Positions 4,934 through 43,759 of a stretch of DNA of 64,000 nucleotides are shown piece after piece. Both the position numbers and the translations under genes were made by a program. The notes beneath the pieces were generated by a model that saw only the letters and a program-made list of their open reading frames with translations, searched no databases and was not told where the DNA came from. Position 1 is the first letter of the stretch. Each line of letters opens with the position of its first letter. The stretch is from Clostridia bacterium (GTDB lineage: Bacteria; Bacillota; Clostridia; RGIG6154). The stretch is taken from the NCBI GenBank assembly GCA_045648505.1, contig JAZROD010000060.1:45904-109903 (forward strand), in the 5' to 3' direction.

Positions 4934-5346
4934 TTTGATGCTTTTAAAGTATCTCTGATTTCTGTAAGAAGCTCTTCAACTGTTGGCTTTGCAGGCTCTT
5001 CAATTTTTACTTCTTCTTCCTTCTTTTCAAATTTATCTCTTATTTTACCCATCAATGTTATAATTGCAAAAATAGAAATCGCAATAATAAAGAAATCTAT
5101 GATGTTCTGTATAAACATACCATATTTGATTGCAACCTCTGCGGTTTCTTCTGTTGCAGGTGTTAAAACATATTTTAAATCTGCAACTGAAACATTTGCT
5201 GTTATATAGCCAAAAAACGGAGTAATGATGTCTGAAACAAGAGATGTTACGATTTTTCCGAAAGCACCGCCCACAACAACGCCGACTGCCATATCGATTA
5301 CATTGCCCTTAAAAGCAAATTCTTTGAATTTTTTAAACATATTCAT
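4930..5346 (-). CDS. mscL: Large-conductance mechanosensitive channel MscL
   Basis: 138-aa protein with FKEFAFKGNVIDMAVGVVVGGAFGKIV, the canonical MscL TM1 signature. Confidence 0.9.
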   Translation of the reverse strand: MNMFKKFKEFAFKGNVIDMAVGVVVGGAFGKIVTSLVSDIITPFFGYITANVSVADLKYVLTPATEETAEVAIKYGMFIQNIIDFFIIAISIFAIITLMGKIRDKFEKKEEEVKIEEPAKPTVEELLTEIRDTLKASK

Positions 5347-24873: not shown

Positions 24874-24895
24874 TGCAAAAGGTGAAGTAGTCGTT

Positions 24896-25681: not shown

Positions 25682-25682
25682 T

Positions 25683-26957
25683 TCATTCTCCTTGTTGATC
25701 GTCATCAAGATTCTTGAGACTCTTCATAACAGCCACACCTATTGCTTTTCCTAAAAGACAAGGAACCGCATTACCTATTTGAACTAATTGCCATTTTTTT
25801 GTTCCCTGAAAAATAAAATCATCGGGGAATGATTGCAGGGCAGCAAGTTCTCTCGGAGTAAGTACTCTTGGAAGTTTAGGATGAATATTTACACCGCCAT
25901 GATTTTCCTTTACCGTACAAGATGGCTTATCCCAAGGAGATTTTTTCCAAGCATCAGAATAATTTCCATATAGACTTTGACCTTCGGGTAAAGCTTTAAT
26001 TTGTTCAATCATTTTATCTGAGTGTCTTGTGAATATATGGTTGATTTGCTTGTTTTCGGGGATGGACATAAAACGCTTAATCCCTTCGCCTAAGGTAACA
26101 TAATTATCAGATGAAAATAATGCTTTAGGATGATAGTTTGTCAAGCCATGTTTATTTCCTATGAAAATAACTCTTTTTCTAATCTGCGGAACACCATAAT
26201 CTGCACTATTAAGAACAGTTACATTAATATCGTAGCCAGCTTCTTTATAATCGCTTATAATTTTTGCCTCAACCTTACCATCAAGCATTGAACGCAATCC
26301 TTCGACATTTTCCATTACAACAAAATCCGGTTGAACTTTTTTCACTATCTCAAGCATTTCCAAATACAAACTGTTTCTTGGGTCTGTAACAACTCTATGT
26401 CCAGCCATACTGAAACCTTGACAAGGGAATCCTCCGACTATTAAATGGATGTGCTTGTCCTTTATAGAAGCGTAAAGTTTTTCCTTAACGCTTTCTTCTC
26501 TTATGTCTCTTGTTTCTACATTTTCATCAAAACCTTTTTTTTCAACGAAATTGTGCTTATATGTAGATACAGCTTCAGGCATAATTTCCACACTACCAAC
26601 AGGAGTAAACCCAGCCATTGTAAGACCACAGCTAAGACCACCTGCACCAGCAAATAAGTCTATGAAATTATAACCATTTCTATATTCTTTATTTGACCAT
26701 CCATCAAAAACCCATTTATCCGAGATGTCTATCCACTTCACTTCATCACATTGTTCATCTACAATGGTTTCATTGAATATATTATCCTTTTCTGGGTCGA
26801 GATCTGATATTAGCCATTTGTCGTAGGCTTCTTTAGTAATACGATACCTATTACCAACTTTATCTGCTTTTAATTTCCCGGCAGCAATATGTCTACGGAT
26901 GGTTTTTTGACTTTGGTTAGACATTTCAGACACTTCCGCTATTGAATAAAACTGCAT
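25683..26957 (-). CDS. DNA (cytosine-5)-methyltransferase with N-terminal HTH domain
   Basis: Motif I FIDLFAGAGGLSCG, motif IV GGFPCQGFS, ENV motif. The N-terminal ~60 aa are MerR/excisionase-like HTH. Confidence 0.9.
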   Translation of the reverse strand: MQFYSIAEVSEMSNQSQKTIRRHIAAGKLKADKVGNRYRITKEAYDKWLISDLDPEKDNIFNETIVDEQCDEVKWIDISDKWVFDGWSNKEYRNGYNFIDLFAGAGGLSCGLTMAGFTPVGSVEIMPEAVSTYKHNFVEKKGFDENVETRDIREESVKEKLYASIKDKHIHLIVGGFPCQGFSMAGHRVVTDPRNSLYLEMLEIVKKVQPDFVVMENVEGLRSMLDGKVEAKIISDYKEAGYDINVTVLNSADYGVPQIRKRVIFIGNKHGLTNYHPKALFSSDNYVTLGEGIKRFMSIPENKQINHIFTRHSDKMIEQIKALPEGQSLYGNYSDAWKKSPWDKPSCTVKENHGGVNIHPKLPRVLTPRELAALQSFPDDFIFQGTKKWQLVQIGNAVPCLLGKAIGVAVMKSLKNLDDDQQGE

Positions 26958-27235
26958 ATAAATCCTCCTAATTGGTCATTGTGTCCATTATACATGTTTT
27001 TTGTCCAATTGTCAAGTACTTGGCTATGCAGAATATATAAATTAAACGAATACCATAAAATAAACTTTTACCCCATAAATTAAACGATTTCAATTTATAA
27101 AGGCATAATTTTTAAACAATTAACATTTTGATAAGCATTTTAAAAGTCTACAAAACATAAGATTCCTCGAAAACCGCATCGTTACTGCGTTTTTAAGAAA
27201 TAAAAAAAACAAACTATTCTATCAAAATAGTCTGT

Positions 27236-27263
27236 CTTTTTTGGTGCAGGTGGTGGGAAACGA
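27236..27263. repeat. attL: partial direct copy of the tRNA-Leu 3' end
   Basis: cttttttggtgcaggtggtgggaaacga matches 33694-33720 (cctttttggtgcaggtggtgggaatcga) with 1-2 mismatches. Confidence 0.8.
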
Positions 27264-27356
27264 TAGGCTTTAAACCCTTTATTTAAAGGTTTTTTGAAAT
27301 TTTACTGTTGCCAATATGTTGCCTATGAAATAATTTTAAACGATTTCAAGTTGATT

Positions 27357-28529
27357 TTATACTGCTATTTCTGGGTATGGGTGACCGATTGTAAGACCTT
27401 CATTTTGAAGTATAGCATCAATCTTTGATATGTTGTCCTCGATATAGTCCTTTGTAGCATAGAAATATGTGTTCATTGTGATACTTATATCTGTGTGTCC
27501 CATTATCTCTTGAAGGACTTTAGGCGGCATACCTGCCTCTGCACATCTTGTACCGAATGTGTGACGGAGAGAGTGCAGGTCGATTTTTCCGTCTGTGATT
27601 GTTTCATCAAGTATGTTATATTTCTTTAGTGTTCTTCTGAACTGTGCATTTACTTGTGATGTAGTAACCATTTTGTCATTATGAGTAAAAATAAGACCTT
27701 GCTTTTTATCTCTTATGCAGTCCTGGAGCAGTTCTCTAACTGCATCTGTCATTGTTAGTGTTCTTATACCTGCTTTTGTTTTTGTGGTATCACTTAGGAG
27801 AGCCTCTCCCTTTTGTCCTCTTGATATGGTTCTTTTAATTGTTATGCGGTTAAAATTAAAGTTTACATCTTCAACAAACAATGCGTTTATCTCTCCCATG
27901 CGGAAACCAAGAGCAAGAGAAAGGAGCATCTGTCTTGAATAGTTTATATCTTCGTTTTTTAAAACCTCTATGAGTTTTTTCTGTTCGTCTTTGGTTAATG
28001 CTCTTACTTTTGCCGTTTCTTTCTTTGAGTGAGGTTTTTTAATATACTGCATAGGATTGTCTGTTATTATTTTTCTGTGTGTTGCCTCTTTAAAGGTTTT
28101 ATTTAAAAGCTCAAAGAATTTATTGATAACTGATTGTGAATAATGCAGATTGTTGTTTAAAAAGTTTTTCAGCTGTGTTTCGTGTGCCTCTTGCAGAGGT
28201 GTGTTATAAATCGGTGCTAATATTTTGAGTGTTTCCAAGTGCCGATAATATGACGGCTCTTTTATCTCGTTCTGATTAAGCTTATCATCAAGCATCTGTT
28301 TCGCAAGGCTGTATATGGTTATACCGCTTTTGTCAATAAATGTACCGGTGTAGATTTGAAATTCAACAGCTTTTAACTTTGCCTTTACATCAGCTTTTGT
28401 GCTACCGTACACAGTTTTTCTTTTTCTTCTGCCTTTTTCATCAAAGCCGACAGTTATTTGACCTACATATAAGCTTCTCTTTTCGTCAAAATAAATAGCT
28501 CCGTCTCCTTTTGACCGTCTTTTAGCCAT
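27357..28529 (-). CDS. int: Tyrosine-type site-specific integrase
   Basis: C-terminal catalytic region HSLRHTFGTRCAEAG ... GHTDISITMNTYFY (R..H-x-x-R..H..Y). It lies just inside attL. Confidence 0.9.
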   Translation of the reverse strand: MAKRRSKGDGAIYFDEKRSLYVGQITVGFDEKGRRKRKTVYGSTKADVKAKLKAVEFQIYTGTFIDKSGITIYSLAKQMLDDKLNQNEIKEPSYYRHLETLKILAPIYNTPLQEAHETQLKNFLNNNLHYSQSVINKFFELLNKTFKEATHRKIITDNPMQYIKKPHSKKETAKVRALTKDEQKKLIEVLKNEDINYSRQMLLSLALGFRMGEINALFVEDVNFNFNRITIKRTISRGQKGEALLSDTTKTKAGIRTLTMTDAVRELLQDCIRDKKQGLIFTHNDKMVTTSQVNAQFRRTLKKYNILDETITDGKIDLHSLRHTFGTRCAEAGMPPKVLQEIMGHTDISITMNTYFYATKDYIEDNISKIDAILQNEGLTIGHPYPEIAV

Positions 28530-28712
28530 AAAAAATACACTCCTTTGTAATTTTATAAATTGACATTAAGAGTGCAATATGATATACTTTTCTTGCTGTA
28601 GAAGAGTATATTTTATATATGCACTCTATGCTGAACTGTCCTTATTGCCGTAAGGGCAGTTCTTTTTTTATTCTCTTCTCCGCTTCCTAAAGAAACATAA
28701 GAAGCGGTAATG

Positions 28713-29042
28713 TTATAAAATAGCTTTTATATTATCCCTTAATTGCGGAAAGTCTGATGTTACTGTAAGATAGACATCTTGCATGTGCAGTGTTTGGTAC
28801 TTATGCGCCGCAATATCTCTAAACCCTGCTATGTTTCGCCAAGGAATGTTTTTATGTTCTGTTCGCAGTTCATCAGAAAGAGCCTTTACAAGCTCACCTA
28901 TGTTTATTACTGTCATACAGATTGCTCGTTTTAATATTTCGTCTTTGTTAAACTCTTCAAAGGTTTTTGTGTTTATCATATCAAGCGCAATTTCTGTTTC
29001 GCTTATAATCTTTTTCAGTATTGTCATATCTCTATGCTGCAT
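28713..29042 (-). CDS. hepT: HepT-like nucleotidyltransferase-substrate-binding toxin (DUF86)
   Basis: R-x4-H-x-Y motif (RDIAAHKY). Overlaps the mntA stop by 11 nt. Confidence 0.75.
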   Translation of the reverse strand: MQHRDMTILKKIISETEIALDMINTKTFEEFNKDEILKRAICMTVINIGELVKALSDELRTEHKNIPWRNIAGFRDIAAHKYQTLHMQDVYLTVTSDFPQLRDNIKAIL

Positions 29043-29319
29043 AAATTTCCACCACCTTTTCAGGTTTTATCAATGAATTTTCAGGAAGCGGAGAATGTAT
29101 AACATCAACATCAACTCCTAGCAATTCTTCAATTCTGTTTTTAATCTCGGCAAGTATAAAGAGAGATACTGCCGTTGTGCTAAATTCAATCAATAAGTCA
29201 ACATCACTTTCAGGTGTGTTTCTTTCTTCTGCATAAGATCCGAAAAGCATTATGCGTGTTATCGGATATTCACAAGCAACTTTTTGTGTGGCTGTTATAA
29301 TCTGTTGTAGTGTAAGCAT
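29032..29319 (-). CDS. mntA: MntA-like minimal nucleotidyltransferase antitoxin
   Basis: GS-x9-13-DxD motif (LFGSYAEERNTPESDVDLLIEF). Confidence 0.75.
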   Translation of the reverse strand: MLTLQQIITATQKVACEYPITRIMLFGSYAEERNTPESDVDLLIEFSTTAVSLFILAEIKNRIEELLGVDVDVIHSPLPENSLIKPEKVVEIYAA

Positions 29320-29399
29320 TATATCAACTCCTATATTTTTATTTTATCCGCTCCGTTTTGGTTTATGTCGGTGATGCAGTTCTGCATCAGCAGGAGCGG

Positions 29400-29759
29400 T
29401 TAATTATTTTGTTCTTTTCTCCTTAATAGTTCGTCTATATGTCCTATCGCATTAAACCAACCTGAAGAAAGAACAAAAATAACATTTGTGAAATCGATTA
29501 TAATACCAAAAACTGAACGATATTGAGGAAAATATTTTATTGACCATACGATATTAAAGCCATAAAGAAAGAAACCTATAAGTGTAAGTAAAGCAATAAA
29601 GAATATTCTTGCTCTTGGTGCGTAGTGCTTATTTATAAATAGCATACCAGGTATATAATAACAAAAGCTTACAACAACAGGAAGATGAACATTGTTATAA
29701 CAAAACAACAATGCTATAAGACCTAAAACAAAAGCAAAAAAAGATTTGATTGTACCCAT
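29400..29759 (-). CDS. Small integral membrane protein (3-4 TM), function unknown
   Basis: 119-aa hydrophobic ORF between the cI-like repressor gene and the TA pair. No recognisable motif. Confidence 0.4.
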   Translation of the reverse strand: MGTIKSFFAFVLGLIALLFCYNNVHLPVVVSFCYYIPGMLFINKHYAPRARIFFIALLTLIGFFLYGFNIVWSIKYFPQYRSVFGIIIDFTNVIFVLSSGWFNAIGHIDELLRRKEQNN

Positions 29760-29799
29760 AATAACACTCTCCTTTATGTGTTTTTATATTTTTAAAGTC

Positions 29800-30246
29800 T
29801 TATGTTGTCAATTCTTCTATTGGCGGTTGAGAGCTTTCAGATAATTCTCCACCGTATGCAGCAACTTGATAATAATCTTCTCTTGGCATTTCAAATGTTT
29901 TCTTTGTATATTTATCATTTATAAGCAAATCATCAATATATGTGTTTGCTCTCTTTTTCCCGAGTTCGTTAAGCTTATGATATTTGTCTAATAAAAGATT
30001 GTCGTTTGTGTCACCTTTTACACTTTTATTATTTTCAGGATTGTCAGTAAGACCTATAAGAAAATCTCCTGTTGTGTCTAATATGGTGCAAAGTTGTTTA
30101 ATTATTTTAAGATTGGGATAATTTTTGCCTGTTTCATACATAGCTATTGTAGATTTTGATAAATTCATAATTTGTGCTAATTCGCCTTGAGTTAGCTTTT
30201 TTTCTTTTCTTAAATGACTTATTCTTTCGCCAACTGTTAAAAACAT
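29800..30246 (-). CDS. cI-like XRE-family repressor
   Basis: N-terminal HTH_XRE (LTQGELAQIMNLSKSTIAMYETGKNYP). Divergent from a cro-like gene. Confidence 0.75.
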   Translation of the reverse strand: MFLTVGERISHLRKEKKLTQGELAQIMNLSKSTIAMYETGKNYPNLKIIKQLCTILDTTGDFLIGLTDNPENNKSVKGDTNDNLLLDKYHKLNELGKKRANTYIDDLLINDKYTKKTFEMPREDYYQVAAYGGELSESSQPPIEELTT

Positions 30247-30278
30247 ATCAAAGCCCCCTTTATGTTATTTCTGTAATC

Positions 30279-30372
30279 AAAATATCACAATTTATGTAGT
30301 TTGTCAATATAAAAATCACAAAATATGATTTTATTTTCCGAAAAGTATTGACAAAATCACAAATAATGATTA
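30279..30372. promoter_or_regulatory. Divergent promoter/operator region with three ATCACA-n5-TGATT palindromic operators
   Basis: aaaatcacaaaatatgatttt (30312-30332), aaaatcacaaataatgatt (30353-30371) and a degenerate aatatcacaatttatg (30279-30296). TTGACA-17-TATTAT overlaps O2 and points toward the cro-like gene. Confidence 0.55.
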
Positions 30373-30420
30373 TTATGTATCTGTAAAGTTCACGAATGAT
30401 GAACAGGAAGGGGAATTTTT

Positions 30421-30609
30421 ATGTTAAAGAATTTAGAGGCAGAACAGGCACGTAAGAAAAAAACAGATGCAGATATTGCTGAAGTTTTAGGAATTGCAAG
30501 GGAAACATACAACAAAAAGAAGAAAAACTTACATTTTACCTTCTTAGAGATAAAAAGCTTATGTCTATACTTTGATGCAACATTTGAGTATCTCTTTGCA
30601 ACCGAATGA
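30421..30609 (+). CDS. Cro-like XRE-family HTH protein
   Basis: 62 aa, HTH_XRE (KTDADIAEVLGIARETYNKKK). Confidence 0.6.
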   Translation: MLKNLEAEQARKKKTDADIAEVLGIARETYNKKKKNLHFTFLEIKSLCLYFDATFEYLFATE

Positions 30610-30664
30610 ATTAAACCACAGGAGCGGACATCTGCTCCGCAATAAGAAAGGAGAACAAACTGCA

Positions 30665-30808
30665 ATGGAAAACAAAGAGATTTTAAGAATTACTAAAAAG
30701 GTCAAAAAGGACCTTAAGGGCAAAATTGCTTTATTATGTGCCTTAGCATCTGCAGGAGCAGTTATCGGCACAATGCTTTTTAGTAAGGTGGTGAAAGCAG
30801 ATGCATAA
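30665..30808 (+). CDS. 47-aa single-TM peptide (possible)
   Basis: MENKEILRITKK..IALLCALASAGAVIGTMLF. Weak RBS, and the listed ORF has longer in-frame upstream starts. Confidence 0.25.
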   Translation: MENKEILRITKKVKKDLKGKIALLCALASAGAVIGTMLFSKVVKADA

Positions 30809-31394
30809 AGAAATATTGAAAAATTCTATAACAAAGTTACCTAAAGGGACTGATAGCGAACAAGTGAAAAGGCTTGACAATATTTTGTGTACTATATATG
30901 GGACTTTGGAAGAAAGAATAACAGACGAAAAAACACTTGAATATCTTGACAATTTAAGAGATTGTATAGATTACATAAAAGTTGAAAGCTTTGACAATGG
31001 TGTTTGTTATGGATTGGAACTTGCAAACGCATATAAAACAATAATATACGAGCCAAGACGAGCTTTTGAAGATATGAGAGCCTCTTTAGAACCATTCGAC
31101 AAAAAGTATGATGATATAGATAAAACATATACAGAGATTTTAGCAAATAAGCACAATAATATTTATTCTGATGATGCTATAGACACATTACATCATGAGT
31201 ATATGTTCAGAGAGGACTACACAGAGGCAGTCGTCAGCATAGATAAAACAAAAGAAGCGGAAGATGCAAAAGAGCGATTTTATAAAGATAAGCTGAAAGA
31301 TGAAGAAATACTAACAGCAATTAACACTTGTTATCTTGATGAAGGCTTCAGACAAGGTTTCAAGTGTGCAATGAATATAAAGAACAAACGATAA
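30801..31394 (+). CDS. Hypothetical protein (197 aa, acidic, no recognisable domain)
   Basis: Clean ORF that overlaps the upstream peptide ORF stop. Function not inferable from sequence. Confidence 0.5.
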   Translation: MHKEILKNSITKLPKGTDSEQVKRLDNILCTIYGTLEERITDEKTLEYLDNLRDCIDYIKVESFDNGVCYGLELANAYKTIIYEPRRAFEDMRASLEPFDKKYDDIDKTYTEILANKHNNIYSDDAIDTLHHEYMFREDYTEAVVSIDKTKEAEDAKERFYKDKLKDEEILTAINTCYLDEGFRQGFKCAMNIKNKR

Positions 31395-31419
31395 AAACAA
31401 CCGAAAGGAGCGAAATCTG

Positions 31420-31524
31420 ATGTATTATGTTATTTGTCAGGACTGCGGAGCAAGGCTTGACACAGGGGAAAAATGCGACTGCAAACAACAAGCCAAGAGT
31501 AAGAAAGGCGGTAAAGCAAAATGA
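31420..31524 (+). CDS. 34-aa Cys-rich zinc-ribbon-like mini-protein (possible)
   Basis: MYYVICQDCGARLDTGEKCDCKQQAKSKKGGKAK, with an AAAGGAG RBS 8 nt upstream. It is too short for the ORF track. A 49-aa TM peptide ORF (31521-31670) follows with an ATGA overlap. Confidence 0.3.
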   Translation: MYYVICQDCGARLDTGEKCDCKQQAKSKKGGKAK

Positions 31525-31659
31525 ATAATATTATAATTACCGTTTTGATTTGGTGTTCTGTGTGCTTATTCTTTGGCATTTTGGGAGTGGTAGAGAAAAT
31601 TCCGTACATAGACAAGCTTTTAAGCGAAGCAGTAAAAAGAATTGAAAGGAGCGGAAAAT

Positions 31660-31878
31660 ATGAGTGGTGAAAAGATTGTAGCCTTTGGAAATGAAGAAAC
31701 AGTTAATACCGATTTAATATTTTATGATACAAAAGATGTAGCAAGAATATTGAGGTGTTCTATACAGTCTGCAAGAGACATTATGCACAGGAAAGACTTT
31801 CCGCTTATCCAGGTCGCAAAAAATATGAGAGTTTCAAAAAGTGCTTTTGAAAAATGGGCCATGGAAAGAAGAAGTTAA
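31660..31878 (+). CDS. Excisionase/AlpA-like HTH DNA-binding protein
   Basis: 72 aa, DTKDVARILRCSIQSARDIMHRKDFPLIQVAKNMRVSKSAFEKW resembles the HTH_17/Xis family. RBS aaaggagcgg. Confidence 0.5.
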   Translation: MSGEKIVAFGNEETVNTDLIFYDTKDVARILRCSIQSARDIMHRKDFPLIQVAKNMRVSKSAFEKWAMERRS

Positions 31879-32015
31879 AAAGAAGCGGAGAGGATCTGCT
31901 CTTATGAAGAATAAAGAAAAATATCAAACCTAAAATTATAACTGCCTACGGGCAGTTTTTAGGCTTGTATGATAATCATAAATAATCAACCGTATCACAG
32001 AGAAGGGGTGAGCGG

Positions 32016-32282
32016 TTGTTCAAGAAAAGACGAGGTATAAAGATACCATACAACAAACAAGGACTAATTTATTTTATTTGTCTTGATTATAAAAACCAAC
32101 CTCAGAAGATACAGGACAAAATAAAAGGTCTCTGTCACACCGTAGGCGGAGAGGAATACGAAAAGGCTTTGTTTGAGTTTGTAACAACAGAGGCAGGAGC
32201 AATTAAAATCAGCTTAAAGCATTATACAAGTGAAACAAGCTTGTATCAGATGCGTAAAAAGTTTTATGAGCTGTGGAAGTGA
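32016..32282 (+). CDS. Hypothetical protein (88 aa)
   Basis: ORF located between the xis-like and rep genes. No recognisable motifs. Confidence 0.35.
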   Translation: MFKKRRGIKIPYNKQGLIYFICLDYKNQPQKIQDKIKGLCHTVGGEEYEKALFEFVTTEAGAIKISLKHYTSETSLYQMRKKFYELWK

Positions 32283-32299
32283 AAGGAATATAAGAACAA

Positions 32300-33052
32300 A
32301 TGCGAAAAATCAGCCGAGAAATTATATACAAGGCAGGTCAATATATGGACTTACAAAATTACCCTGTTTATAAAAAACAAGGGCAAAGAGCAAAAAGAGG
32401 TAAACCAACATCAGAAGTGCAGCAGAAAATAAACGAAAGAAATTCAAAAATGAAATTATCAAGACTTCTACACGCAAATTTCACAAGTGATGATATAGAG
32501 ATACATTTGACATATTCAGAAGATTGCTTACCTGCAGATGCAAGAGAGGCTTTGAAAGATGTTCAAAACTACATAAGACGACTAAGGAAACATTACAAGG
32601 GAAAAGAGCTTAAATATATTACTGTAACAGAAACAGGAACGGAAAACGGAAGATTTCACCATCACATCACTATAAGTGGCGGTGTTTCAAGAGATATTCT
32701 CGAGGAAGAATGGACAAAAGGCTATGCAAACAGTAAAAGACTACAATTTACCGATAAAGGTTTACAGGGCCTTGCAAACTATATGACAAAACAGAAACTT
32801 GCTTTTAGACGTTGGAACTGCTCAAAGAATTTAGTTAAGCCAACAGAAAAGGTGCGCCATAACACAATATCAAATAAAAAACTCAAAGAAATGTATATAT
32901 ACCAGGAGCAGAACGGAGAAAAGCTCTTGATTGAAAAATACGCAGACTTTTTAGCAAAACTTTATCCCGGCTACAAAATAACAGAATTAAAGATTGTTGA
33001 AAATGATGTCAACAAAGGTTATTATATGCACATATTCGGTAAAAGAATATAA
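32300..33052 (+). CDS. rep: Putative HUH-motif replication initiator (rolling-circle Rep-like)
   Basis: FHHHITISGG (H-U-H motif) and a downstream GLANYMTKQ candidate catalytic Tyr. It is followed by a structured putative origin region. Confidence 0.5.
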   Translation: MRKISREIIYKAGQYMDLQNYPVYKKQGQRAKRGKPTSEVQQKINERNSKMKLSRLLHANFTSDDIEIHLTYSEDCLPADAREALKDVQNYIRRLRKHYKGKELKYITVTETGTENGRFHHHITISGGVSRDILEEEWTKGYANSKRLQFTDKGLQGLANYMTKQKLAFRRWNCSKNLVKPTEKVRHNTISNKKLKEMYIYQEQNGEKLLIEKYADFLAKLYPGYKITELKIVENDVNKGYYMHIFGKRI

Positions 33053-33070
33053 GTTTGCAAAAGTTCGCAA

Positions 33071-33107
33071 CACGCAATAAATGCGCACGTGTGCGTGTGC
33101 ATGTGCG
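33071..33107. repeat. 37-nt perfectly alternating purine-pyrimidine GC-rich tract (atgcgcacgtgtgcgtgtgcatgtgcgtgtgcgcgtg)
   Basis: Direct reading of the sequence. It lies immediately 3' of rep in a ~35% GC background and is flanked by inverted gcaa-rich repeats (33040-33065 and 33245-33270). Confidence 0.7.
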
Positions 33108-33693
33108 TGTGCGCGTGAGAAAAAAGCGAATAAATAAAGAGTTTACAATATTTCTTTTGTATGGTTTACAAAACCAAACAAAAAACAAGCAAATGCGAAG
33201 TTGATTAAAAAGAGGCTTGAAACATAAATGTTTTAAGTGCTTTTTGCGTTGTTGAAATTCGCAAACGATTGGGAATTTGTGTATAAATACTTGCAATTAT
33301 TTTAATATAGTGTTATAATGTAAGTGCAGGATAGCACTTACGGTTGGGTGCTATCTCCCCCTTTGGTGTTTTCCTGAAATATACAAAGGGGGTTTGTTCT
33401 TTAAATTTAGTTTTTTCATAAAAGCATACCTCTGTTACCAAGTCTGAATGGCTTGGTTTTTTCTTTATAAGCTCTGCATCAGGAAGAGCAGACAAAAGAA
33501 GCGGTAATATTTCCGCTTCCTATGAATTTTATGTTGCCAATATGTTGCCTATTGTTGCCTATTTGTTGCCTATGAAACGATTTTAAACAAACTCAAACTG
33601 ATTTTAAAAGAAAACATAAAAGTCTTGAAAGTGCCTATTTATAAGGGCTTGCAGACTTTTAAGTAAAAAAATAAAGACGGTTGTAAAAGCCGC

Positions 33694-33720
33694 CTTTTTG
33701 GTGCAGGTGGTGGGAATCGA
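33694..33720. repeat. attR core (overlaps the tRNA-Leu 3' end)
   Basis: Direct repeat partner of 27236-27263. Confidence 0.8.
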
Positions 33721-33785
33721 ACCCACACGGTATCACTACCACAGGATTTTGAGTCCAGCGCGTCTGCCAGTTCCACCACACCTGC
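33699..33785 (-). tRNA. tRNA-Leu (anticodon CAA), type II with long variable arm and encoded CCA
   Basis: The reverse complement GCAGGTGTGGTGGAACTGGCAGACGCGCTGGACTCAAAATCCTGTGGTAGTGATACCGTGTGGGTTCGATTCCCACCACCTGCACCA folds with a 7-bp acceptor stem, a GGTTCGATTCC T-arm and a CUCAAAA anticodon loop. There is one T-T mismatch in the anticodon stem. Confidence 0.8.
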
Positions 33786-36185: not shown

Positions 36186-36857
36186 ATGGCAAAAAACATT
36201 AAAACAATATCTTTTATATGCTTTCTTTTGGCAACCGTTGTTCTCTCTTTTATCTGTATTCCTCTGGTGAAAGGTTTTACAGATGCACAGGCAATAGATG
36301 CGTTCAAGGAGAGCTTCGGTGGTTTTGGTGTGTTTGCCTTGCTTATTATACAAATTCTGCAGATAATAGTTGCTCTTATTCCCGGTGAAGTTATTGAATT
36401 TGCAGCAGGTGCATTGTTTGGTGGCTTGAGGGGAACGATTTTGTGTGTGGCAGGTATCGGAGCAGGACAGTATATGGTCTTTATGCTTGTGAAAAAGTGG
36501 GGAAATGATGTTATTTCTCCCGATAAGAAATTCATAAACAAAGTCACTTTTCTTAAAGATGAAAGAAAGGTTAAAATTTTAACATTTATCCTTTTCTTTC
36601 TGCCCGGAACACCAAAAGATTTGCTTACATATTTTATGCCCGCAACAAGTATTGACCTGAAGAGCTTTCTTTTTATAACTCTTCTGGCAAGAATACCATC
36701 GGTTTTGTCCTCCACAATCGCAGGTAGTATGTATGCAAAAGGGAATATAAAGCTTACAGTGTTTATATATATCATTGTGGCAATCACAAGCGGTATTGGT
36801 TACCTGATATACAAATTTTTCTTTGACAGGAGGCATAAAAATGGCACAGACAGATAA
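36186..36857 (+). CDS. DedA/TVP38-TMEM64 family membrane protein
   Basis: [18 protein letters not shown] DedA signature. GGAGG RBS before the ATG at 36186. Confidence 0.75.
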
Positions 36858-37305
36858 TATAAAATTAATATCAAACAACAAAAAAGCATATCATGACTTC
36901 TTCATTGAAGAAAAATTTGAAGCAGGTATGGAGCTTTTTGGTACCGAAATAAAATCTGTAAGAATGGGAAATGTAAACCTGAAGGACAGTTGGATTTCTA
37001 TAAAAAATTTAGAGGCTTTTGTTATGGGGATGCACATCAGTCCTTATGAAAAGGGTAATATTTTTAACAAAGACCCTTTAAGAATAAGAAAGCTTCTTCT
37101 TCATAAAAAAGAAATATTAAAGCTTTTTAGTAAGGTTTCACAGGACGGATATTCAATTGTTCCGTTAAGTGTTTATCTTAAAGGCTCAAAAGCGAAAATG
37201 GAAATAGCCCTTGCAAAAGGTAAAAAACTCTACGACAAGAGAGATGATGCGGCTAAAAAGAGTGCAAAAAGAGAAATTGAAAGAGCAGTCAAAGAACGCT
37301 TTTAA
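36841..37305 (+). CDS. smpB: SsrA-binding protein SmpB
   Basis: [39 protein letters not shown], canonical SmpB. AGGAGG RBS. ssrA lies 400 nt downstream. Confidence 0.9.
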
Positions 37306-37704
37306 ATTTCTACAATTTTCATTTGACAATAATGTTATTTTATATTAAAATGCATATTACGAAGTTTGCTTTTTCATTGTGCGAAGCACATCCTTTTGAT
37401 AAATGAAGAACTCACTATCGTTCGTATGAAGTATTGCATAATGAAGTTTGTGCTTACGCACAAAATGATGTGATGTTTGTCCTTGTACCGTAGGTACACT
37501 TCATTTTGCGAAGCAAACTGTTATTGATATGAAGCATCGGCGTTGCCGACATGATGTACTCGCTATGCTCGTATGAAGTAATTCGCTACGCTCATTATGA
37601 AGCGAAGTTTGCTTTTCCATTGTGCAAAGCACACATCATAAGCGAAGCGTCTTCATGTTGCGGAGCAATACTTCATTTGCGAAGCAAACTTCATTATAAT
37701 ACAC

Positions 37705-38052
37705 GGGGGTGTAAAGGTTTCGACGGGGATAAAGAAGTAAGTTAAGCAAGTGGTTGTGCGGAGCAACCTTAAAATCCGTATTATAAATTTAAACGCTAAC
37801 AATAATTTAGCTTACGCTGCCTAATTAAGGCGGCCGTCTGACTTGTATTACCGTGGTATAAGATTCAGGCGTCGACTACACGGTGAACGTGCGTCTGCAA
37901 AGCTTTGAGCAGACCATGAATAATGAAGCTACCAAACAAAGTGCTTTGTTTGCGGAACACTTTATGAGGGAAATCTTAACCACAAACTAAACTTGTAGAA
38001 AGACTTATGGACATATTTTCGGACAGGAGTTCGATTCTCCTCATCTCCACCA
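37705..38052 (+). ncRNA. ssrA: tmRNA (ssrA), ~348 nt, tag peptide reading ...ANNNLAYAA*
   Basis: 5' GGGGGUGUAAAGGUUUCGACGGGGAU, 3' tRNA-like end GGACAGGAGUUCGAUUCUCCUCAUCUCCACCA. Tag ORF gct aac aat aat tta gct tac gct gcc taa. A TATAAT box lies at 37694-37699. Confidence 0.85.
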
Positions 38053-38053
38053 T

Positions 38054-38086
38054 AAAAAATGCCATACGAAAGTATGGTGTTTTTTT
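38054..38086 (+). terminator. rho-independent terminator of ssrA
   Basis: gccatac-gaaa-gtatggt followed by a T7 run. Confidence 0.7.
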
Positions 38087-38233
38087 ATGGTCAATTTCAT
38101 CAAGGAGAATCGAACTCCGCAGGCACGAACGGTTAAATAAAACAGACCGGTGGACTGTTTTATCAGTGAGTGGTGTGAGACGGGTACCACGAGCAGTGCG
38201 GAGTGGTCGTCGAGCAGGCTGCAATCTTTGATT

Positions 38234-38258
38234 GCAGGAGTTCTCCTCATCTCCACCA
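38234..38258 (+). repeat. Partial direct duplication of the ssrA 3' end (gcaggagttc[-5]tcctcatctccacca)
   Basis: Matches 38023-38052 except for a 5-nt gap. It is followed by a terminator-like hairpin aaaaagacatcc-aa-tggatgtcttttt (38260-38288). Confidence 0.7.
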
Positions 38259-38728
38259 ACAAAAAGACATCCAATGGATGTCTTTTTGTGTTTGTGTCCG
38301 CAAGGACACAACATCATTACGAGCATAGCGAGTACATCATTTCAGCGAAGCTGAACATCATTTAGACAGACACAAAATGATGTTATCTTTGATAAATGAT
38401 GTTGCCTGTCGGCAAACAGTGTTGTGCTTTGCACAAATGATGTTGCACTTCGTACAAATTTTTATGGCTTTTAAAGAGAATCGAACTCCGCACGGCGTGG
38501 TGTTGGAGATGAGTTTGCCTTGTATAATTTTACAAAAATAAATTTAATTTTCTATTGTGCAAAAGAAATTGAAGATTTTGCAAAGAAAAAAAGCGGAATT
38601 TGTAGTATAATTACATTGATATTTGTGCATTTGCAAATGTAAATTGATTTTTCTGCACAAATAACAAGGTGTAAATAAAAGAAGAGTATGGATATTTAAA
38701 AATTAATTATTTCAGAAGGGGGAAATTC

Positions 38729-41700
38729 ATGAAAAAGATTTTAGCGTTAATTGGAGTGTTAGTGTTAATATTAAATATGGTTGTTGTGCCTGTAGCAGCT
38801 GCAGAGCAGACAGCCCTTGAGAAAGTTAATGAGCTTGTTGTTTCTTTGCCTGACAGCTATGTTGTGGGTGAAGGTGATATCATAAATGAAATCGAAGAAA
38901 TTATGGGCGAAAACGGTATAAAGGCAAAAGATTTGAATCAGCCACTTAAATATGCAACTCACGTGAACGCACATAACTCATGGAAAAAAAGAGTTAATTC
39001 ACAGGACAGAATAAGAATTGACTGGCAGGAGAAAAACCCTTTAACCTGCGTTGATATGTTTGAATACAACTCAGTTACTGATGTTGAAGAAATTGCCAAC
39101 AAGCCGGGTATTGCTATGTCTCCGAAGAACGATACTTATCTTCCTTCAAATGTTCCATACGGAAGTTTTATCGGCTTTTATGAAACAGGTTCAGTAAATA
39201 AAAAGTTCCCTGACACCTTCCCTGATACATACGGAGAATATTACATAACACCTGAAAATGATTTTCAGTATTCATATAGCGGTATTTCCAAGAACCCCGG
39301 TGATATCACATACAATGCAGGTATTGTATCACCTTCAAACTCATACGAAATTACTTTTGACAGAAGCACAAAATATAATCAGGTCAGCTTTCTTATGTCA
39401 GGTATCACTTTCCTTTCAGGAGAATGGGCAAGATCATCTCAACTTGCAAAAACAATAATATATTTTGCAGACGGAACTTCAAAAGAAGAATTCCATATTG
39501 TTGGACCCTTCTGCTATGGTTACAGAATGTCTCTTTATTCTACCCTTGCAGATAAAACAACAATGTATAGTGAGTATTTAGGCACAATTGGACTTGCAAA
39601 AGACTTTGACAAATTATGGGTACCAAATGAAGCAAATGTTGACAGTTATTTTAAAATTGGTAACGGAAGAGTTATATCTCCTCAAAAGGAAGATGATGGT
39701 ACAACAATCAGAAACATCAAAACCGTTACTGACGTAGGTAATGCAACAGCAATTACTATAAATACAGATGGCAAGGCTATTGACAGAGTTTCAGTTTCTT
39801 ATGCAACCGAAGATGAAATTAAGGCTTTCGGCGGAATTAAATATGAAACATATACAACAAGACAAGAAACTCCATCAGTAAGAGACAGTAAAAACTGTTA
39901 TTATATTCCTATAGACAGTAATCAATTAAAAGATGCCAAACACTACGAAGCTGAAAGAGATTACTATATCGGCGTAATACATAATACTGTCTACCCTATA
40001 TATCTTCACGCAGTAACAGGAAAAAGATATACTCCAACATCTTACAGTACAGACATTGCAGAAGTCGAAGATAAAATCGAAGCACTTCCTGAAGAATTCA
40101 TTCCAAGTGCTTACGAAGAAATTAAAGCTATTAAAAGACGAGTTGATTTTCTTTTAGCACAGGGCATTGCAAAAGGTGATTTTAATAAAGAGCTTTTTGA
40201 AAAGCTTATCAGACTTTCGGAATATAACATATCCTCAAGTGGAAGCTATGAGGTTCACGTTGCACCAAACGGAAACGACAAGGGTAGCGGAAGCATAAGC
40301 GATCCTTTAGCAACTCTTGATGGGGCAAGACTTTTTGTAAGAAACCTTGAAAAAGACAGACCGATAAACGTTATCTTCCACGAAGGTATTTACAACTTTG
40401 ACAAAACTGTTACTTTTACACTTGACGATTCAGGTAAAAAGGATTTCCCTATTACATATAAAGCCGATGGCGAGGTTGTTTTCACAACTGCAGAGGATGT
40501 TGATTTTAATGATTTCACACTTGTGGAAAAAGGTGAATACAACAGAATTGCCACAAACTTAATTGGTAAAATATACAAAATTAATTTAAACAAAAAAGGC
40601 ATACATCCAGGCACAATTCCTACATACTATGCTACCAATATAGACGGTGACGGCTTTGAAGATGTTAACTTCTTTGTAAATGACAAGGAACAGCTTATTT
40701 CTCAATGGCCTGACGGAGAATCAAACTATGCTACCTGGGTTTCTGTTGAAAATACTGCAAAAGAAAATACAATAATCAAGGTTGATGCATACCGTTCTAA
40801 AAACTGGCAGGGCGAAAAGTTTGCATACTTTGAGGGATATTCAGGGGTTGACTATTCAAACGAAAAAAACAACATCTCTATTGACGGAGATTTAATTAAA
40901 TTCAAAAATACTGCAAGATTTGATACCGATCCGGGCTTCAGCAGAAGATACAAGGTTAAGCACATACTTGCCGAGCTTGACAAACCGGGAGAATGGTATT
41001 TAGACAGAGATACAAATGTTTTTTACTATTATCCAACAGAGGATTTTGATGAAAATGCAAAAATTCAGTTCGCATCTACAAAGCTTAACATTATCAATAT
41101 TCTGAATACTGATTTTGTAAGCTTTGACGGATTTATCTTTGACAAAATCAGAGGCGACGCATTTACTGCGGATTCAGGTGTTGAAGAGCTTAATTTATAC
41201 AACTGCGAATTCAAGCACATTTCAAACAGAGCAGTTGAATATCAGGCATCATCAAATCCCAACAAAATAACCCTTTCAGGTACTGCAAACTACGCAAATG
41301 CGGCTAAAAACTGCGAAATCAGAAATAACAGATTTATAAACATTGGTGAAAACGCAATATATTTTTGCGGTGGAGAAAGAGAAACTCTTTCAAATGGTAA
41401 TAATGTTATTGCGAACAACTATATCTACAATGCCTCAAACAAATTAAGATGCAAAGCAAATATTGTGGTAAATGGTGTTTACAACTATGCAATAAACAAC
41501 GAGGTTCATATGGGCACGTTCCACGCCCTTAACCATTCAGGAAACGAAAATGTTATTGCATATAACGAGTTTTACAATATGCTCCGTGACAGTGGTGACT
41601 GCGGTGTTATCTACAACGGCAGACAGCTTGCAACAAGAGGCACAGAAATTGCATATAATTACCTTCACGACTATAAGCATTTAGACCCAAGAACAAAGGT

Positions 41701-43759
41701 TGGCGCTACAGGAGTATATCTTGATGACAGACTTAGTGGTATAAGCATTCACCATAACATTATATTCGGAAACGGTGTTGACGGAAGCACAGGTGGTATA
41801 CAAAACGGTGGTGGGCATCACAACAAGGTAAACTATAACACTATCGTTGATACAACTTCGAGTATAACCAGAACAAACAGATTTGTTGAAGATTATCTTA
41901 ACAACGAGCATTGTACTGCATTTAACGAAATAATACGAATTTCAGGTATGGATGATACAAACAAGGTTCGCCTTGATGACGGAATTTATAAAACCTTCTC
42001 CATGATTGGCAGAAACGAGTTTTTCTTTGAAAGATATCCTGAAATGAACGATTCAATAGAAACACTTTTAAATCCAAATGAAACTGTTCCAAAGTTTGTT
42101 GAAAAATATCCGTTTATTTTAACACTTCCTGAATTTTCAGAGGGTGGAAAATACGGAAACCTTGCAAAAGACATCAACGAGGGCAACGACTTAACCAAAT
42201 ACAGAATTTTATCTTTAAAATCAACCATTGGTAACGAATATATCGGAAATATTTCAAACAGACCTTGGAGAGCAATGACAGACAAGGATATAAACGGCGA
42301 AGTCTATGATGTTTACGAAAAATTCGGCAGTGTGTTTGAAGACAACATAGAAGACGCATCTGAAGATATGTTTGTTGACTATGAAAACAAGGACTTCAGA
42401 ATCAAAGGCTCAACAAACGGTGGAGCACTTGACGAAAGCTTTGATTTAGACACAATCGGACTTCAGGAAGACGGCTCGGTTTCTTATGATTTAGGTTTTG
42501 AGCTTAAAGACATTGAGCTTAAAAATGCAAAAGACTTCCCTGCAGAATACAAAAACTTCAACTTAACATACCCTGAAAACAACGGCGAGGTTGAGGATAA
42601 GAAAAACATCACATTTATGTGGGAAAGACCTGTTTCTTCTGACTATTTCACATTGGAAATTGCAACAGATAAAGAAATGAAAAACATCGTTTACAAAAAC
42701 GAAAATTCTTACTTTAACTATGAAACAGTAACTTCCCTTCCTGAAAATGTTAAAACATTCTACTGGAGAGTTACTGCAAAAAATATCAGCAGAAAAGGCT
42801 CAGAGTGGAAAAACAGTGACGGTGTTAATGTGTTCCACACTTATGATACCGCAATTATTGACACACCTGCATCAGTTCCGTTTGATATCAAAGATGACTT
42901 TAATGTTGACCTTTTCAACAATGAAGGAGAAACTCATAACTCAAGCAGTCTTCTTGGTGGTAAAAACGCAACACTTGGACTGTATAATCTTACAAACTTT
43001 AAAAGATTGGTTCCTTCAAACGGTTACTACAAGCACGGAGATACTCTTTATTATTTCCCACAGGTAGGATATGACACAAGCAAAAACAATGCAATAAACA
43101 CAGGGAAGCTTGGTTCTGCAAGATACACCTACACCCTTAAGGACAACGAAAAAGGAAGCTACGATAAAATCAAGGTTGCCATAAGCGGTTTTAAACATTA
43201 TAATAACTATGAAATTACTGTTATTTATACCGATGGCACTACATCAACTGATAAGGTTTATCTTTATCAGTATTACACAACCTATAATGCTCCAAGAGGA
43301 TATGATATAATTCTTACGGTAGATGGTATTAACTATTTAGGTCAGCCTGTTTCACGAAGCAACCTTAATAAAATTTATGAGGTTGAAGTTGATGCTGATA
43401 CAAATAAAACTGTAGAAAGCATAAGATTCCAGGGTTCATTATTATCTACCAACGCATATATCTTTGCTATAACAGGTATGAAGAATGAAAGAACTCTTTC
43501 AAATGGTGACATTGAAAAAACAATAGTTTTAAACAACTATTCAGGAGAAGAAAAGAATGTTTCTTTTGTTATCACCGGTTATGATAACGGTAAATTCAGT
43601 ACAGTAATGCTTTCGGGCAAAATCCCAAACAATTCTGTTTATCCATCACTTACAGTTACAATTCCAGGTGAGGTTTATAGTTGGACAGACAGACAAGTTC
43701 TCATTTGGGAAAGTGATAGTATTAAACCTATCGGTGCAAAATCAGTATTTTTCAGATGA
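38729..43759 (+). CDS. Giant secreted right-handed beta-helix (PbH1 repeat) surface protein with FN3/Ig-like domains
   Basis: Signal peptide. Tandem NxxIxxN/HHN parallel beta-helix repeats (~residues 840-1010). Paralogous to the 51096 gene. Confidence 0.7.
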   Translation: MKKILALIGVLVLILNMVVVPVAAAEQTALEKVNELVVSLPDSYVVGEGDIINEIEEIMGENGIKAKDLNQPLKYATHVNAHNSWKKRVNSQDRIRIDWQEKNPLTCVDMFEYNSVTDVEEIANKPGIAMSPKNDTYLPSNVPYGSFIGFYETGSVNKKFPDTFPDTYGEYYITPENDFQYSYSGISKNPGDITYNAGIVSPSNSYEITFDRSTKYNQVSFLMSGITFLSGEWARSSQLAKTIIYFADGTSKEEFHIVGPFCYGYRMSLYSTLADKTTMYSEYLGTIGLAKDFDKLWVPNEANVDSYFKIGNGRVISPQKEDDGTTIRNIKTVTDVGNATAITINTDGKAIDRVSVSYATEDEIKAFGGIKYETYTTRQETPSVRDSKNCYYIPIDSNQLKDAKHYEAERDYYIGVIHNTVYPIYLHAVTGKRYTPTSYSTDIAEVEDKIEALPEEFIPSAYEEIKAIKRRVDFLLAQGIAKGDFNKELFEKLIRLSEYNISSSGSYEVHVAPNGNDKGSGSISDPLATLDGARLFVRNLEKDRPINVIFHEGIYNFDKTVTFTLDDSGKKDFPITYKADGEVVFTTAEDVDFNDFTLVEKGEYNRIATNLIGKIYKINLNKKGIHPGTIPTYYATNIDGDGFEDVNFFVNDKEQLISQWPDGESNYATWVSVENTAKENTIIKVDAYRSKNWQGEKFAYFEGYSGVDYSNEKNNISIDGDLIKFKNTARFDTDPGFSRRYKVKHILAELDKPGEWYLDRDTNVFYYYPTEDFDENAKIQFASTKLNIINILNTDFVSFDGFIFDKIRGDAFTADSGVEELNLYNCEFKHISNRAVEYQASSNPNKITLSGTANYANAAKNCEIRNNRFINIGENAIYFCGGERETLSNGNNVIANNYIYNASNKLRCKANIVVNGVYNYAINNEVHMGTFHALNHSGNENVIAYNEFYNMLRDSGDCGVIYNGRQLATRGTEIAYNYLHDYKHLDPRTKVGATGVYLDDRLSGISIHHNIIFGNGVDGSTGGIQNGGGHHNKVNYNTIVDTTSSITRTNRFVEDYLNNEHCTAFNEIIRISGMDDTNKVRLDDGIYKTFSMIGRNEFFFERYPEMNDSIETLLNPNETVPKFVEKYPFILTLPEFSEGGKYGNLAKDINEGNDLTKYRILSLKSTIGNEYIGNISNRPWRAMTDKDINGEVYDVYEKFGSVFEDNIEDASEDMFVDYENKDFRIKGSTNGGALDESFDLDTIGLQEDGSVSYDLGFELKDIELKNAKDFPAEYKNFNLTYPENNGEVEDKKNITFMWERPVSSDYFTLEIATDKEMKNIVYKNENSYFNYETVTSLPENVKTFYWRVTAKNISRKGSEWKNSDGVNVFHTYDTAIIDTPASVPFDIKDDFNVDLFNNEGETHNSSSLLGGKNATLGLYNLTNFKRLVPSNGYYKHGDTLYYFPQVGYDTSKNNAINTGKLGSARYTYTLKDNEKGSYDKIKVAISGFKHYNNYEITVIYTDGTTSTDKVYLYQYYTTYNAPRGYDIILTVDGINYLGQPVSRSNLNKIYEVEVDADTNKTVESIRFQGSLLSTNAYIFAITGMKNERTLSNGDIEKTIVLNNYSGEEKNVSFVITGYDNGKFSTVMLSGKIPNNSVYPSLTVTIPGEVYSWTDRQVLIWESDSIKPIGAKSVFFR

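Follow-up and report, generated by a model that had tools for sequence, protein, structure and literature searches.

The window analysed here, a 64,000-nt stretch of contig JAZROD010000060.1 from a Clostridia bacterium, carries the transfer-messenger RNA (tmRNA) gene ssrA, and the DNA directly downstream of this gene, at positions 38053-38520, is the subject of this report. We lean towards the view that a small DNA module without genes, of a kind that inserts at the 3' ends of transfer RNA (tRNA) and tmRNA genes, is present here as a single copy in decay. We read the insert as an integrase-less mini-element in decay, similar to a cis-mobilizable element (CIME), rather than as the remains of large islands. 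The region belongs to a recurrent and apparently undescribed family, the members of which are tiny and stand behind tRNA and tmRNA genes; a literature search on the hairpin sequence of this family and on small tRNA-linked elements found no description of it.

The region is laid out as ssrA, a first repeat unit (U1), a hairpin with segment B, and a second repeat unit (U2), as shown in Table 1. The repeat unit U, about 90 nt in length, opens with the 18 nt that end ssrA; a terminator, TGG, a spacer and an inverted T-arm follow, and some 15 nt complete it. The non-coding segment between its two copies is 116 nt. U2 is truncated and is split by an array of mini-hairpins, the copy number and sequence of which vary among strains. 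A gapped alignment of 38082-38124 with 38459-38496 gave a longer direct repeat, which takes in both inverted copies of the T-arm and opens with the T-tract and TGG that close terminator 1. Positions 38026-38118 form a 93-nt quasi-palindrome with the terminator loop at its centre (DNA fold -28.6 kcal/mol, z = -8.75); its base is a perfect stem of 16 bp and its middle is unpaired. A preliminary description of this DNA had interpreted the repeated fragments as nested attL/attR remnants of several large elements, and what was found instead is two copies of one unit around a short segment. The longer direct repeat, the quasi-palindrome, the 23-nt hairpin and the mini-hairpin arrays on both flanks are additions to that description.

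Table 1. Features of the window: ssrA and its surroundings, the downstream module, and a likely integrated element elsewhere in the window
Feature	Position	Strand	Remarks
smpB, ssrA partner gene, upstream of ssrA	36841-37305	+	Pfam PF01668 on identical or near-identical products
ssrA (tmRNA gene)	37705-38052	+	ARAGORN, tag ANNNLAYAA; Rfam RF00023, 168.6 bits
ssrA T-arm, GGAG-TTCGATT-CTCC	38026-38040	+	acceptor 3' strand plus ACCA at 38041-38052
Repeat unit U1	38035-38124	+	ssrA tail (18 nt), terminator 1, TGG, spacer, inverted T-arm, start of segment A
Terminator 1, in U1	A-tract 38054-38059, stem-loop 38062-38077, T-tract 38080-38086	+	
TGG of U1	38088-38090	+	
Inverted T-arm of U1	38103-38118	+	overlaps the 17-mer at 38105-38121
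Segment A, gcaGGCACGAACGGTTAAAT	38119-38138	+	counterpart of the GGCGAsCG-TWAAG lead-in of other modules (by eye); kept in related strains
Family hairpin, AAAACAGaCCGGTGGACTGTTTT	38139-38161	+	22/23 match to the shared motif, 1 mismatch; chance expectation 0
Segment B	38162-38233	+	contains small hairpin gcaatc-ttt-gattgc (38221-38235)
DR2, direct copy of the ssrA 3' end	38234-38258	+	resembles an attachment core; sequence gcaggagttctcctcatctccacca
Terminator 2	38259-38289	+	perfect 15-nt inverted repeat directly after DR2; another hairpin here in related strains
Mini-hairpin array	38293-38460		about 170 nt, no strand assigned; between terminator 2 and the rest of U2
Rest of U2	38459-38496	+	TTTTTATGG, spacer, second inverted T-arm, few nt of segment A
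TGGTGTTGGAGATGAG	38498-38513	+	imperfect reverse complement of acceptor strand plus CCA; inverted pairs 88% and 92%; 3 mismatches
C5 and N4/N6 DNA methylases	24896-26957		in the 24271-33785 element
Tyrosine integrase	27357-28529		in the 24271-33785 element; Pfam-confirmed
Putative HEPN/nucleotidyltransferase toxin-antitoxin pair	28713-29319		two small open reading frames; by eye
Helix-turn-helix regulator	29800-30246		in the 24271-33785 element
G2P-type rolling-circle Rep	32300-33052		in the 24271-33785 element

The 25-nt direct copy of the ssrA tail, DR2, lies exactly where the preliminary description had placed it. It begins with the T-stem 5' strand and 3 nt from the start of the T-loop, then lacks 5 nt of this loop, and goes on with the T-stem 3' strand, the acceptor strand and ACCA. 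The 15-mer TCCTCATCTCCACCA occurs exactly at 38038-38052 and 38244-38258, and it has six matches within 3 mismatches against a shuffle mean of 0.92 (none of 100 shuffles reached 6). Identity extends over 18 nt (38035-38052 and 38241-38258), and similarity reaches back to 38235. The ssrA tail and its direct copy are 181 nt apart. The displaced copy starts at the T-loop/T-stem, which is a known integration sublocation besides the anticodon loop and the 3' end, and runs through to CCA; it has, as had been proposed, the form of a displaced attachment (att) core. A direct copy that starts in the T-loop and runs to CCA is the classic outcome of insertion into a tRNA or tmRNA gene (PMC4383910), and the ssrA islands of Dehalococcoides show a 20-bp repeat with insertion in the T-loop's middle (PMC3146451).

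The inverted 17-mer GAGAATCGAACTCCGCA was confirmed in two exact copies, which are positioned 2 nt further to the right than first reported, at 38105-38121 and 38476-38492; its chance expectation is 0.08, and none of the shuffles came to 3. All 16 positions of the real T-arm at 38026-38041 find their complement in the first inverted copy. The word TGGAGATGAG, said to follow the second inverted copy, is also present, within 38498-38513; TGGTGTTGGAGATGAG is not found at the corresponding position in three related strains (L263, L269 and L272; L numbers denote the loci used for comparison).

The hairpin of the window departs from the family motif by a mismatch that disrupts a stem pair, and strain L081 has the exact sequence. 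Its lead-in reads TTAAAT, as against G-TWAAG in the family, and the closing helix is gone in the window's lineage. Segment B has CGGGTACC...GGTCGyCGAGC in common with segment B of the L236 module (by eye), and in L083 the small hairpin ahead of DR2 has changed in a compensatory manner (gcgatt-ccc-aatcgc). The window module holds all parts of the family in the family order, co-oriented with ssrA, and it is the single module locus within the 64 kb.

The hairpin motif of the family is AAAACAGnCCGGTGGnCTGTTTT, 23 nt in length. It was found exactly in 16 IMG/VR contigs and, among the matches listed, in more than 120 metagenome contigs, and 130 distinct contexts among the matches listed were analysed. 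A complete tRNA or tmRNA gene lies at most 350 nt upstream on the same strand in 28 of the 130 contexts, and any other arrangement was seen in 1-2. A direct repeat of the gene tail (≥12 nt) together with an inverted match (≥8 nt) to the upstream 3' region was detected in 44 of the 130, some of these automated inverted matches being to terminators or tandem units and not to the T-loop. When contexts were inspected by eye, the inverted match was the complement of the T-loop and T-stem, and at every gene type inspected in this way the inverted arm was complementary to the local T-loop. The genes that bear modules are those for tRNA-Leu, Ser, Tyr, Arg, Pro, Ala, Trp and Thr, and two tmRNA types. 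The parts follow the order of gene tail, terminator, complement of the gene's T-loop/T-stem, hairpin domain, 20-110 nt, tail copy and terminator, all co-oriented. Modules commonly stand in tandem arrays, two or three to an array and repeating every 200 nt or so, as at L129, L133, L167, L174, L183, L200 and L237. Because the L237 array mixes variants of segment B, separate insertions are favoured over simple local duplication. The earlier proposal of several decayed large elements does not agree with this recurrence of one layout, with a homologous hairpin domain, at no fewer than nine other types of tRNA and tmRNA gene in unrelated bacteria.

A scan of related species representatives detected 52 tmRNA genes (L001-L084 plus the window). 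An inverted T-loop within 250 nt downstream was found at 2 of 44 other tmRNA loci, those of the distant relatives L035 and L002, both with the full module. At L035, with 66% SmpB identity, the part order is the same, the hairpin is almost identical to that of the window, and the inverted copy AATTGAA fits the T-loop of this locus itself, TTCAATT. At L002 the part order is again the same, and the hairpin is diverged and structurally equivalent.

The variation within the family was also followed in the hairpin. Its N:N pair covaries (T:A 97, C:G 15, G:C 1), one large class has an extension of 4-5 bp in nine variants that are fully paired, and the closing helix covaries across the internal loop G-TWAAG/TA in the class behind tRNA genes. 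The hairpin behaves as a real stem. A search with Rfam at permissive thresholds recovered only the tmRNA in 37300-38750, everything else being far below threshold, and at 37 other loci it gave no family for the module or the hairpin.

The hairpin was also observed in other contexts. A domain of about 65 nt, GGGCCGAGCGTTAAG-hairpin-AGCGAGGAGCC, occurs twice in each of two tandem tRNA-Leu-like copies (L160, minus strand 2130-1400), at the D-loop and variable-arm positions. In L191 (minus strand 1399-560), the 23-nt hairpin stands between Rfam matches to D1-D4 and D5 of a group II intron, a place that would be domain IV. Another common context, GGGGTGAATnnn-hairpin-nnnAGAGGGGACGCCCTGCAAG..., is found in multi-hairpin intergenic clusters (L164, 7890-8150). 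Rfam has no family for the L160, L191 or L164 hairpin contexts. Behind the tRNA-Ser gene of L156 (403-680), the module ends in TCCCTTGCTCTCCGCCA and the gene ends in TCCCTAACTCTCCGCCA; the left part of the module has GGAGGGAGCA, which is complementary to the module's own version. The tail of this module matches the tRNA-Ser allele of L162/L233, which points to a move of the module or else to a replaced gene tail.

The gene smpB served as an anchor for retrieving related strains. SmpB variants 96-100% identical to that of the window led to 20 more loci, and no exact-protein match was obtained for the TTG-start SmpB or for UDG. The preliminary description had advised a comparison of the DNA downstream of ssrA across related strains, and in this comparison, directly after the CCA of ssrA, at least five kinds of DNA occur among strains with 96-100% identical SmpB, one being an island with a serine recombinase. 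The window type is found in the window and L081. A second type has the same frame with the hairpin AAAACAATTGATAATTGTTTT and another terminator 2 (L263, L265, L266, L269 and L272), and a third has the frame with a 163-nt insert replacing the hairpin (L083). The fourth is a solo unit of ssrA, terminator 1, inverted T-arm, segment A and a terminator hairpin, followed by mntP/nadE, without segment B and DR2 (L273 and L274). The last is unrelated DNA, either an S-layer homology (SLH) protein gene (L264) or the island with Mor and the serine recombinase (L277-L282).

U1 is kept in L081, L083, L263, L265, L266, L269, L272 and L273. The window, L083, L263, L269 and L272 have the same DR2 down to the 5-nt gap, and segment B is about 10% different between the window and L272. 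In L263, L269 and L272, the second arm copy runs through GTAAGGCACGAGCCGTTAATAAA and ends at the would-be hairpin start. In strains of this second type, all of segment A comes after the second inverted arm, the copy ends exactly at the would-be hairpin start, and the genes past this point differ strain by strain. The inverted arm is gathering changes in L263 and L274. The module thus predates this strain group, is polymorphic and is decaying in several lineages, including that of the window. Conservation of the copies as they are in all relatives, with no associated mobile DNA anywhere, had been named in advance as speaking against an integration scar. The copies are indeed conserved, with the same 5-nt gap in five strains; mobile DNA is nonetheless tied to the site.

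Several further differences among the strains were observed. The hairpins at 38139-38161 and 38259-38289 are wholly different in L263, L269, L272, L083 and L273, with flanks about 90% identical, and both of these variable positions are framed by an A-tract and a T-tract. It looks as if the hairpins are exchanged as whole units. In L263 (5158-7465), L266 and L269, the DNA just past the second inverted arm encodes a Fic protein, a XerC/XerD-like tyrosine recombinase of 278 aa and a TetR regulator; this small recombinase beside the palindromic unit could be relevant to the recombination of the unit. An array of mini-hairpins similar to that at 38293-38460, and larger, lies upstream of ssrA at 37330-37700. 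The arrays have stems of 4-7 bp and loops such as GAA, AAA, GGA and GTT, alternating with a short constant word, which is TTCAT, ATGAAG, ATGATG or CATCAT in the window and TGAAATA, GTTATATT/ATATCAC or AGCTAAAT in other strains. Similar arrays are present in L083 (3260-3400), in L272 and L263 after terminator 2, and in L003 (2020-2200). The array upstream of ssrA has one unit in L083, about four in L081 and about nine in the window, despite identical SmpB. We know of no name for such mini-hairpin arrays.

The exact 27-nt ssrA tail was found in 42 IMG/VR contigs, 40 of which lack a complete tmRNA gene. Most of these contigs have a same-strand open reading frame (ORF) of about 370 aa that ends 55-64 nt upstream of the tail. 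One of these ORFs is a tyrosine integrase by Pfam, and 32 others match the integrase ORF of the window (27357-28529) with E ≤ 1.2e-5. Because the contigs show the standard int-attP arrangement, the ssrA tail of this lineage is an active phage attachment core. Integrases were also found beside modules at tRNA genes: L129 and L133 have an integrase, the core and then two (L129) or three (L133) modules, L226 has a module with an integrase upstream, and in L235 the module, a tail copy and a terminator are followed by an integrase reading toward the module.

The region itself gave no sign of an integrase. When 35 phage ORFs were used in tblastn against 38053-38530 and against L081 and L083, no integrase remnant was detected, which does not bear out the idea of a remnant of large islands; the only match of these ORFs in the window is the intact integrase 10 kb away. 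The two plus-strand ORFs in the region have no Pfam match. A search of viral contigs for the window-type inverted arm plus flank gave no matches, GenBank phages have no match to the module, and with the hairpin-cluster region the GenBank phages returned only unannotated gut phage fragments. Since the attP regions of the ssrA-targeting phages lack the inverted T-arm, the module is not simply the two arms of such phages, and this candidate was ruled out. An ORF beside the module in L141 was rejected as an integrase, as no integrase motifs were seen by eye. In the attP regions of L085-L126 (IMG/VR), a short palindrome, the arms of which covary among phages (gttcacTGgtgaac, ggcacCAgtgcc and gtcttTGGTaagac), lies about 9 nt before the 27-nt core, and a terminator follows the core. 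The palindrome may be a site for the integrase or an accessory protein. In L005, a relative that shares the tag peptide, the minus strand downstream of ssrA (4895-5041) weakly matches the C-terminus of the phage integrases (tblastn E ~0.05), which may be an integrase remnant.

The insertion of such a module could proceed as follows. A circle of about 200 nt, or a larger ancestor, with a copy of U would recombine with the ssrA 3' end at the T-loop/T-stem boundary, and a phage or island with this same core would provide the recombinase, a tyrosine integrase, in trans. The U of the element would restore the gene tail and bring the terminator, and the old tail would turn into DR2. Repeated events, or unequal crossing-over between U copies, would then give arrays and solo units. 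As a best guess, we take the quasi-palindromic U to be the site of recombination itself. The window copy looks inactive, because DR2 lacks 5 nt of the crossover loop, the hairpin pair is broken, and U2 is split and truncated; the loss of the 5 nt also means that attR is probably not functional. From the integration scar proposed for the ssrA 3' end, we retain the insertion at an attachment core and abandon the origin from leftovers of large nested islands.

Several points weigh against a mobile module of this kind. No movement was observed, and unequal crossing-over alone could give the differences in copy number. A canonical tyrosine-integrase attP should hold the left half of the T-arm core (the T-stem 5' strand plus loop), which is not intact at the right-hand junctions of most modules. 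The presence of one 23-nt hairpin at nine or more gene types is hard to square with integrase-specific arm sites, and its RNA-strand orientation in the group II intron (L191) and the tRNA-Leu-like sequences (L160) hints at a role at the RNA level. DR2, invariant in five strains amid about 10% divergence, may still be under selection. The module-bearing viral contigs look like prophage-host junctions, and we do not claim that phages carry the modules. The 42 phage contigs with the 27-nt core have neither an inverted T-arm nor blastn similarity past the core.

The alternative that survives best, although we consider it rather unlikely, is a functional structured RNA that is transcribed with the tmRNA or tRNA or just after it. 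The inverted T-arm would pair with the T-arm, either in the read-through precursor or in the mature molecule; the hairpin would bind a protein or act as a terminator, and the 3' end would mimic an acceptor. The strict co-orientation of the modules with the upstream gene, the covariation in the hairpin and closing helix, tandem G-A motifs (by eye), and the location of the hairpin domain on the RNA strand of the group II intron and tRNA-like sequences are all consistent with this, as are the compensatory changes in the small hairpin before DR2 and the invariance of DR2 across five strains. L273 and L274, which hold only the inverted T-arm, segment A and the terminator hairpin, resemble a small RNA gene. 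However, a terminator precedes the inverted T-arm, no consistent promoter-like sequence was seen by eye before this arm across the modules, and L156 has just 4 nt between the T-tract and the arm. The RNA fold of the window module is unremarkable (z = -1.9), no Rfam family matches, and the module is present at only 2 of the 44 other tmRNA loci. In close strains, moreover, the hairpin is replaced wholesale, L083 has the 163-nt insert in its place, and L263 and L274 show decay of the inverted T-arm. Two specific forms of RNA were rejected: a small RNA directed against the T-arm with its own promoter, as no promoter-like box is consistent across the modules (by eye), and a tRNA-like or permuted tmRNA-like RNA, for which both strands were read by hand. 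The acceptor-like and T-arm-like pieces stand in crossing order on both strands, and therefore no cloverleaf or minihelix fold is obtained.

We give little credence to the explanation closest to the preliminary description, in which several islands or prophages of full size, since lost by deletion or excision, left the fragments as nested attL/attR scars with no structure of their own. The ssrA gene is demonstrably a hotspot here, DR2 is shaped like a displaced core, and the weak integrase C-terminal match downstream of ssrA in L005 could be counted in its favour. Site-specific integration alone, however, yields direct repeats only and not inverted copies, and there is no coding remnant in the region. 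The same part order, with homologous hairpin and segments A and B, recurs at many unrelated tRNA and tmRNA genes and in tandem arrays of about 200 nt; the nested scars are disfavoured because random deletion would not yield such a layout repeatedly.

Folded recombination sites are known from integron attC and from the attP(+) of CTX phage. It is improbable, in our estimate, that U works in this manner, the T-arm strand and the inverted T-arm rebuilding a double-stranded integrase core, and single-stranded DNA being inserted by one strand exchange that permits no excision, so that modules pile up in tandem. The perfect 16-bp base and unpaired middle of the 93-nt imperfect palindrome resemble such sites, as an imperfect palindrome of about 90 nt with paired ends that would rebuild a recombinase core. 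The arrays run palindrome, short cassette, palindrome, the insertion seems irreversible, and wherever a gene type was inspected by eye, its T-loop is complemented by the inverted arm. Pairing of the DR2 side with the inverted arm would leave a 5-nt bulge, which to us recalls the extrahelical bases of attC. Unlike integron cassettes, however, the modules have no cassette ORFs, and their palindrome comes from the 3' end of the host gene and the terminator. Nothing links the modules to a single-stranded intermediate, a replication protein or a recombinase of their own, their junctions misfit a simple exchange at the T-stem/loop boundary, and the palindrome is equally explicable as a strand-switching by-product at the terminator hairpin. 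Finally, a chance likeness of short T-arm-like words in AT-rich intergenic DNA, to which short and partly palindromic T-arm sequences might be prone, is a negligible prospect, refuted by the shuffle controls (expectation 0.08 for the 17-mer and 0.00 for the hairpin) and by the conservation of the fragments in related strains.

The gene-less module at tRNA and tmRNA 3' ends shares features with several known systems. Like islands and prophages in tRNA genes (tDNA), it leaves an intact gene and a direct copy of the 3' end from the T-loop, it builds up in tandem downstream, and phage integrases with an identical core exist (PMC4383910, PMC3146451). Unlike them, the segment in the window is only about 200 nt with no gene, integrase or cargo between the repeats, and the inverted T-arm and conserved hairpin domain are absent from canonical attP regions. 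CIMEs, as in the Streptococcus ICESt1/ICESt3 family, have kept their att sites and lost the recombination and transfer genes, and derive by deletion from an integrative and conjugative element (ICE) or an integrative and mobilizable element (IME), to be mobilised in cis once accretion has taken place (PMC5704250). The module is likewise flanked by att-like repeats, has no integrase or transfer genes, and elsewhere stands in tandem with integrase-bearing elements (L133, L235). However, CIMEs are kb-sized decay products of one ICE or IME, whereas the modules are about 200 nt, their non-coding content is homologous from one target gene or taxon to the next, and they bear no mark of an ancestor with genes. 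With miniature inverted-repeat transposable elements (MITEs), repetitive extragenic palindromes (REPs) and bacterial interspersed mosaic elements (BIMEs) (review PMC3184786), the module has in common that it is small, non-coding, rich in hairpins and multi-copy in metagenomes, and the 23-nt hairpin also occurs in mosaic hairpin clusters (L164). It differs from them in being found only at tRNA and tmRNA 3' ends and always co-oriented. Its ends are copies of the local gene that vary with the gene type, in contrast to the fixed terminal inverted repeats and short target duplication of MITEs; fixed terminal inverted repeats, target duplication and dispersed copies were not found for the window module.

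The known kind to which the modules would be assigned is thus that of integrase-less elements at tDNA sites, with a modest chance of something more distinct. It is possible, though doubtful, that they are an undescribed class of miniature mobile elements targeting tRNA and tmRNA genes, in which the quasi-palindrome of gene tail, terminator and inverted T-arm would be the recombination site, possibly as a folded single strand, and the near-universal 23-nt hairpin domain would be the cargo.

Two other parts of the window were noted. The segment 24271-33785, of lower GC content (0.31-0.34), is likely an integrated element beside the tRNA-Leu(CAA) gene (33699-33785, minus strand), and its genes are listed in Table 1; the 25-nt tail of this tRNA gene has no second copy within 3 mismatches. 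Directly downstream of the module lies a 1676-aa ORF (38729-43759), the N-terminus of which resembles a signal peptide (by eye); Pfam gave nothing for it at E ≤ 0.001, and the gene at this position differs in each sister strain examined.

Duplicated tails of tRNA and tmRNA genes are routine markers of the ends of genomic islands. As this locus shows, a tail copy that lies just 200 nt away can instead be part of a recurrent module without genes, and not of a worn-down island. Island finders that work by pairing tails would miscall these modules or pass over them. Such modules are widespread, recurring in many gut and rumen bacteria. They put extra attachment cores and inverted cores beside essential RNA genes, by which phages that come in could be redirected or trapped. 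The 23-nt hairpin that they share, which occurs in more than 130 distinct contexts, provides a handle for finding the protein or process that spreads it, and if the reading as miniature elements is true, a recombinase or RNA-binding partner of the hairpin awaits discovery.

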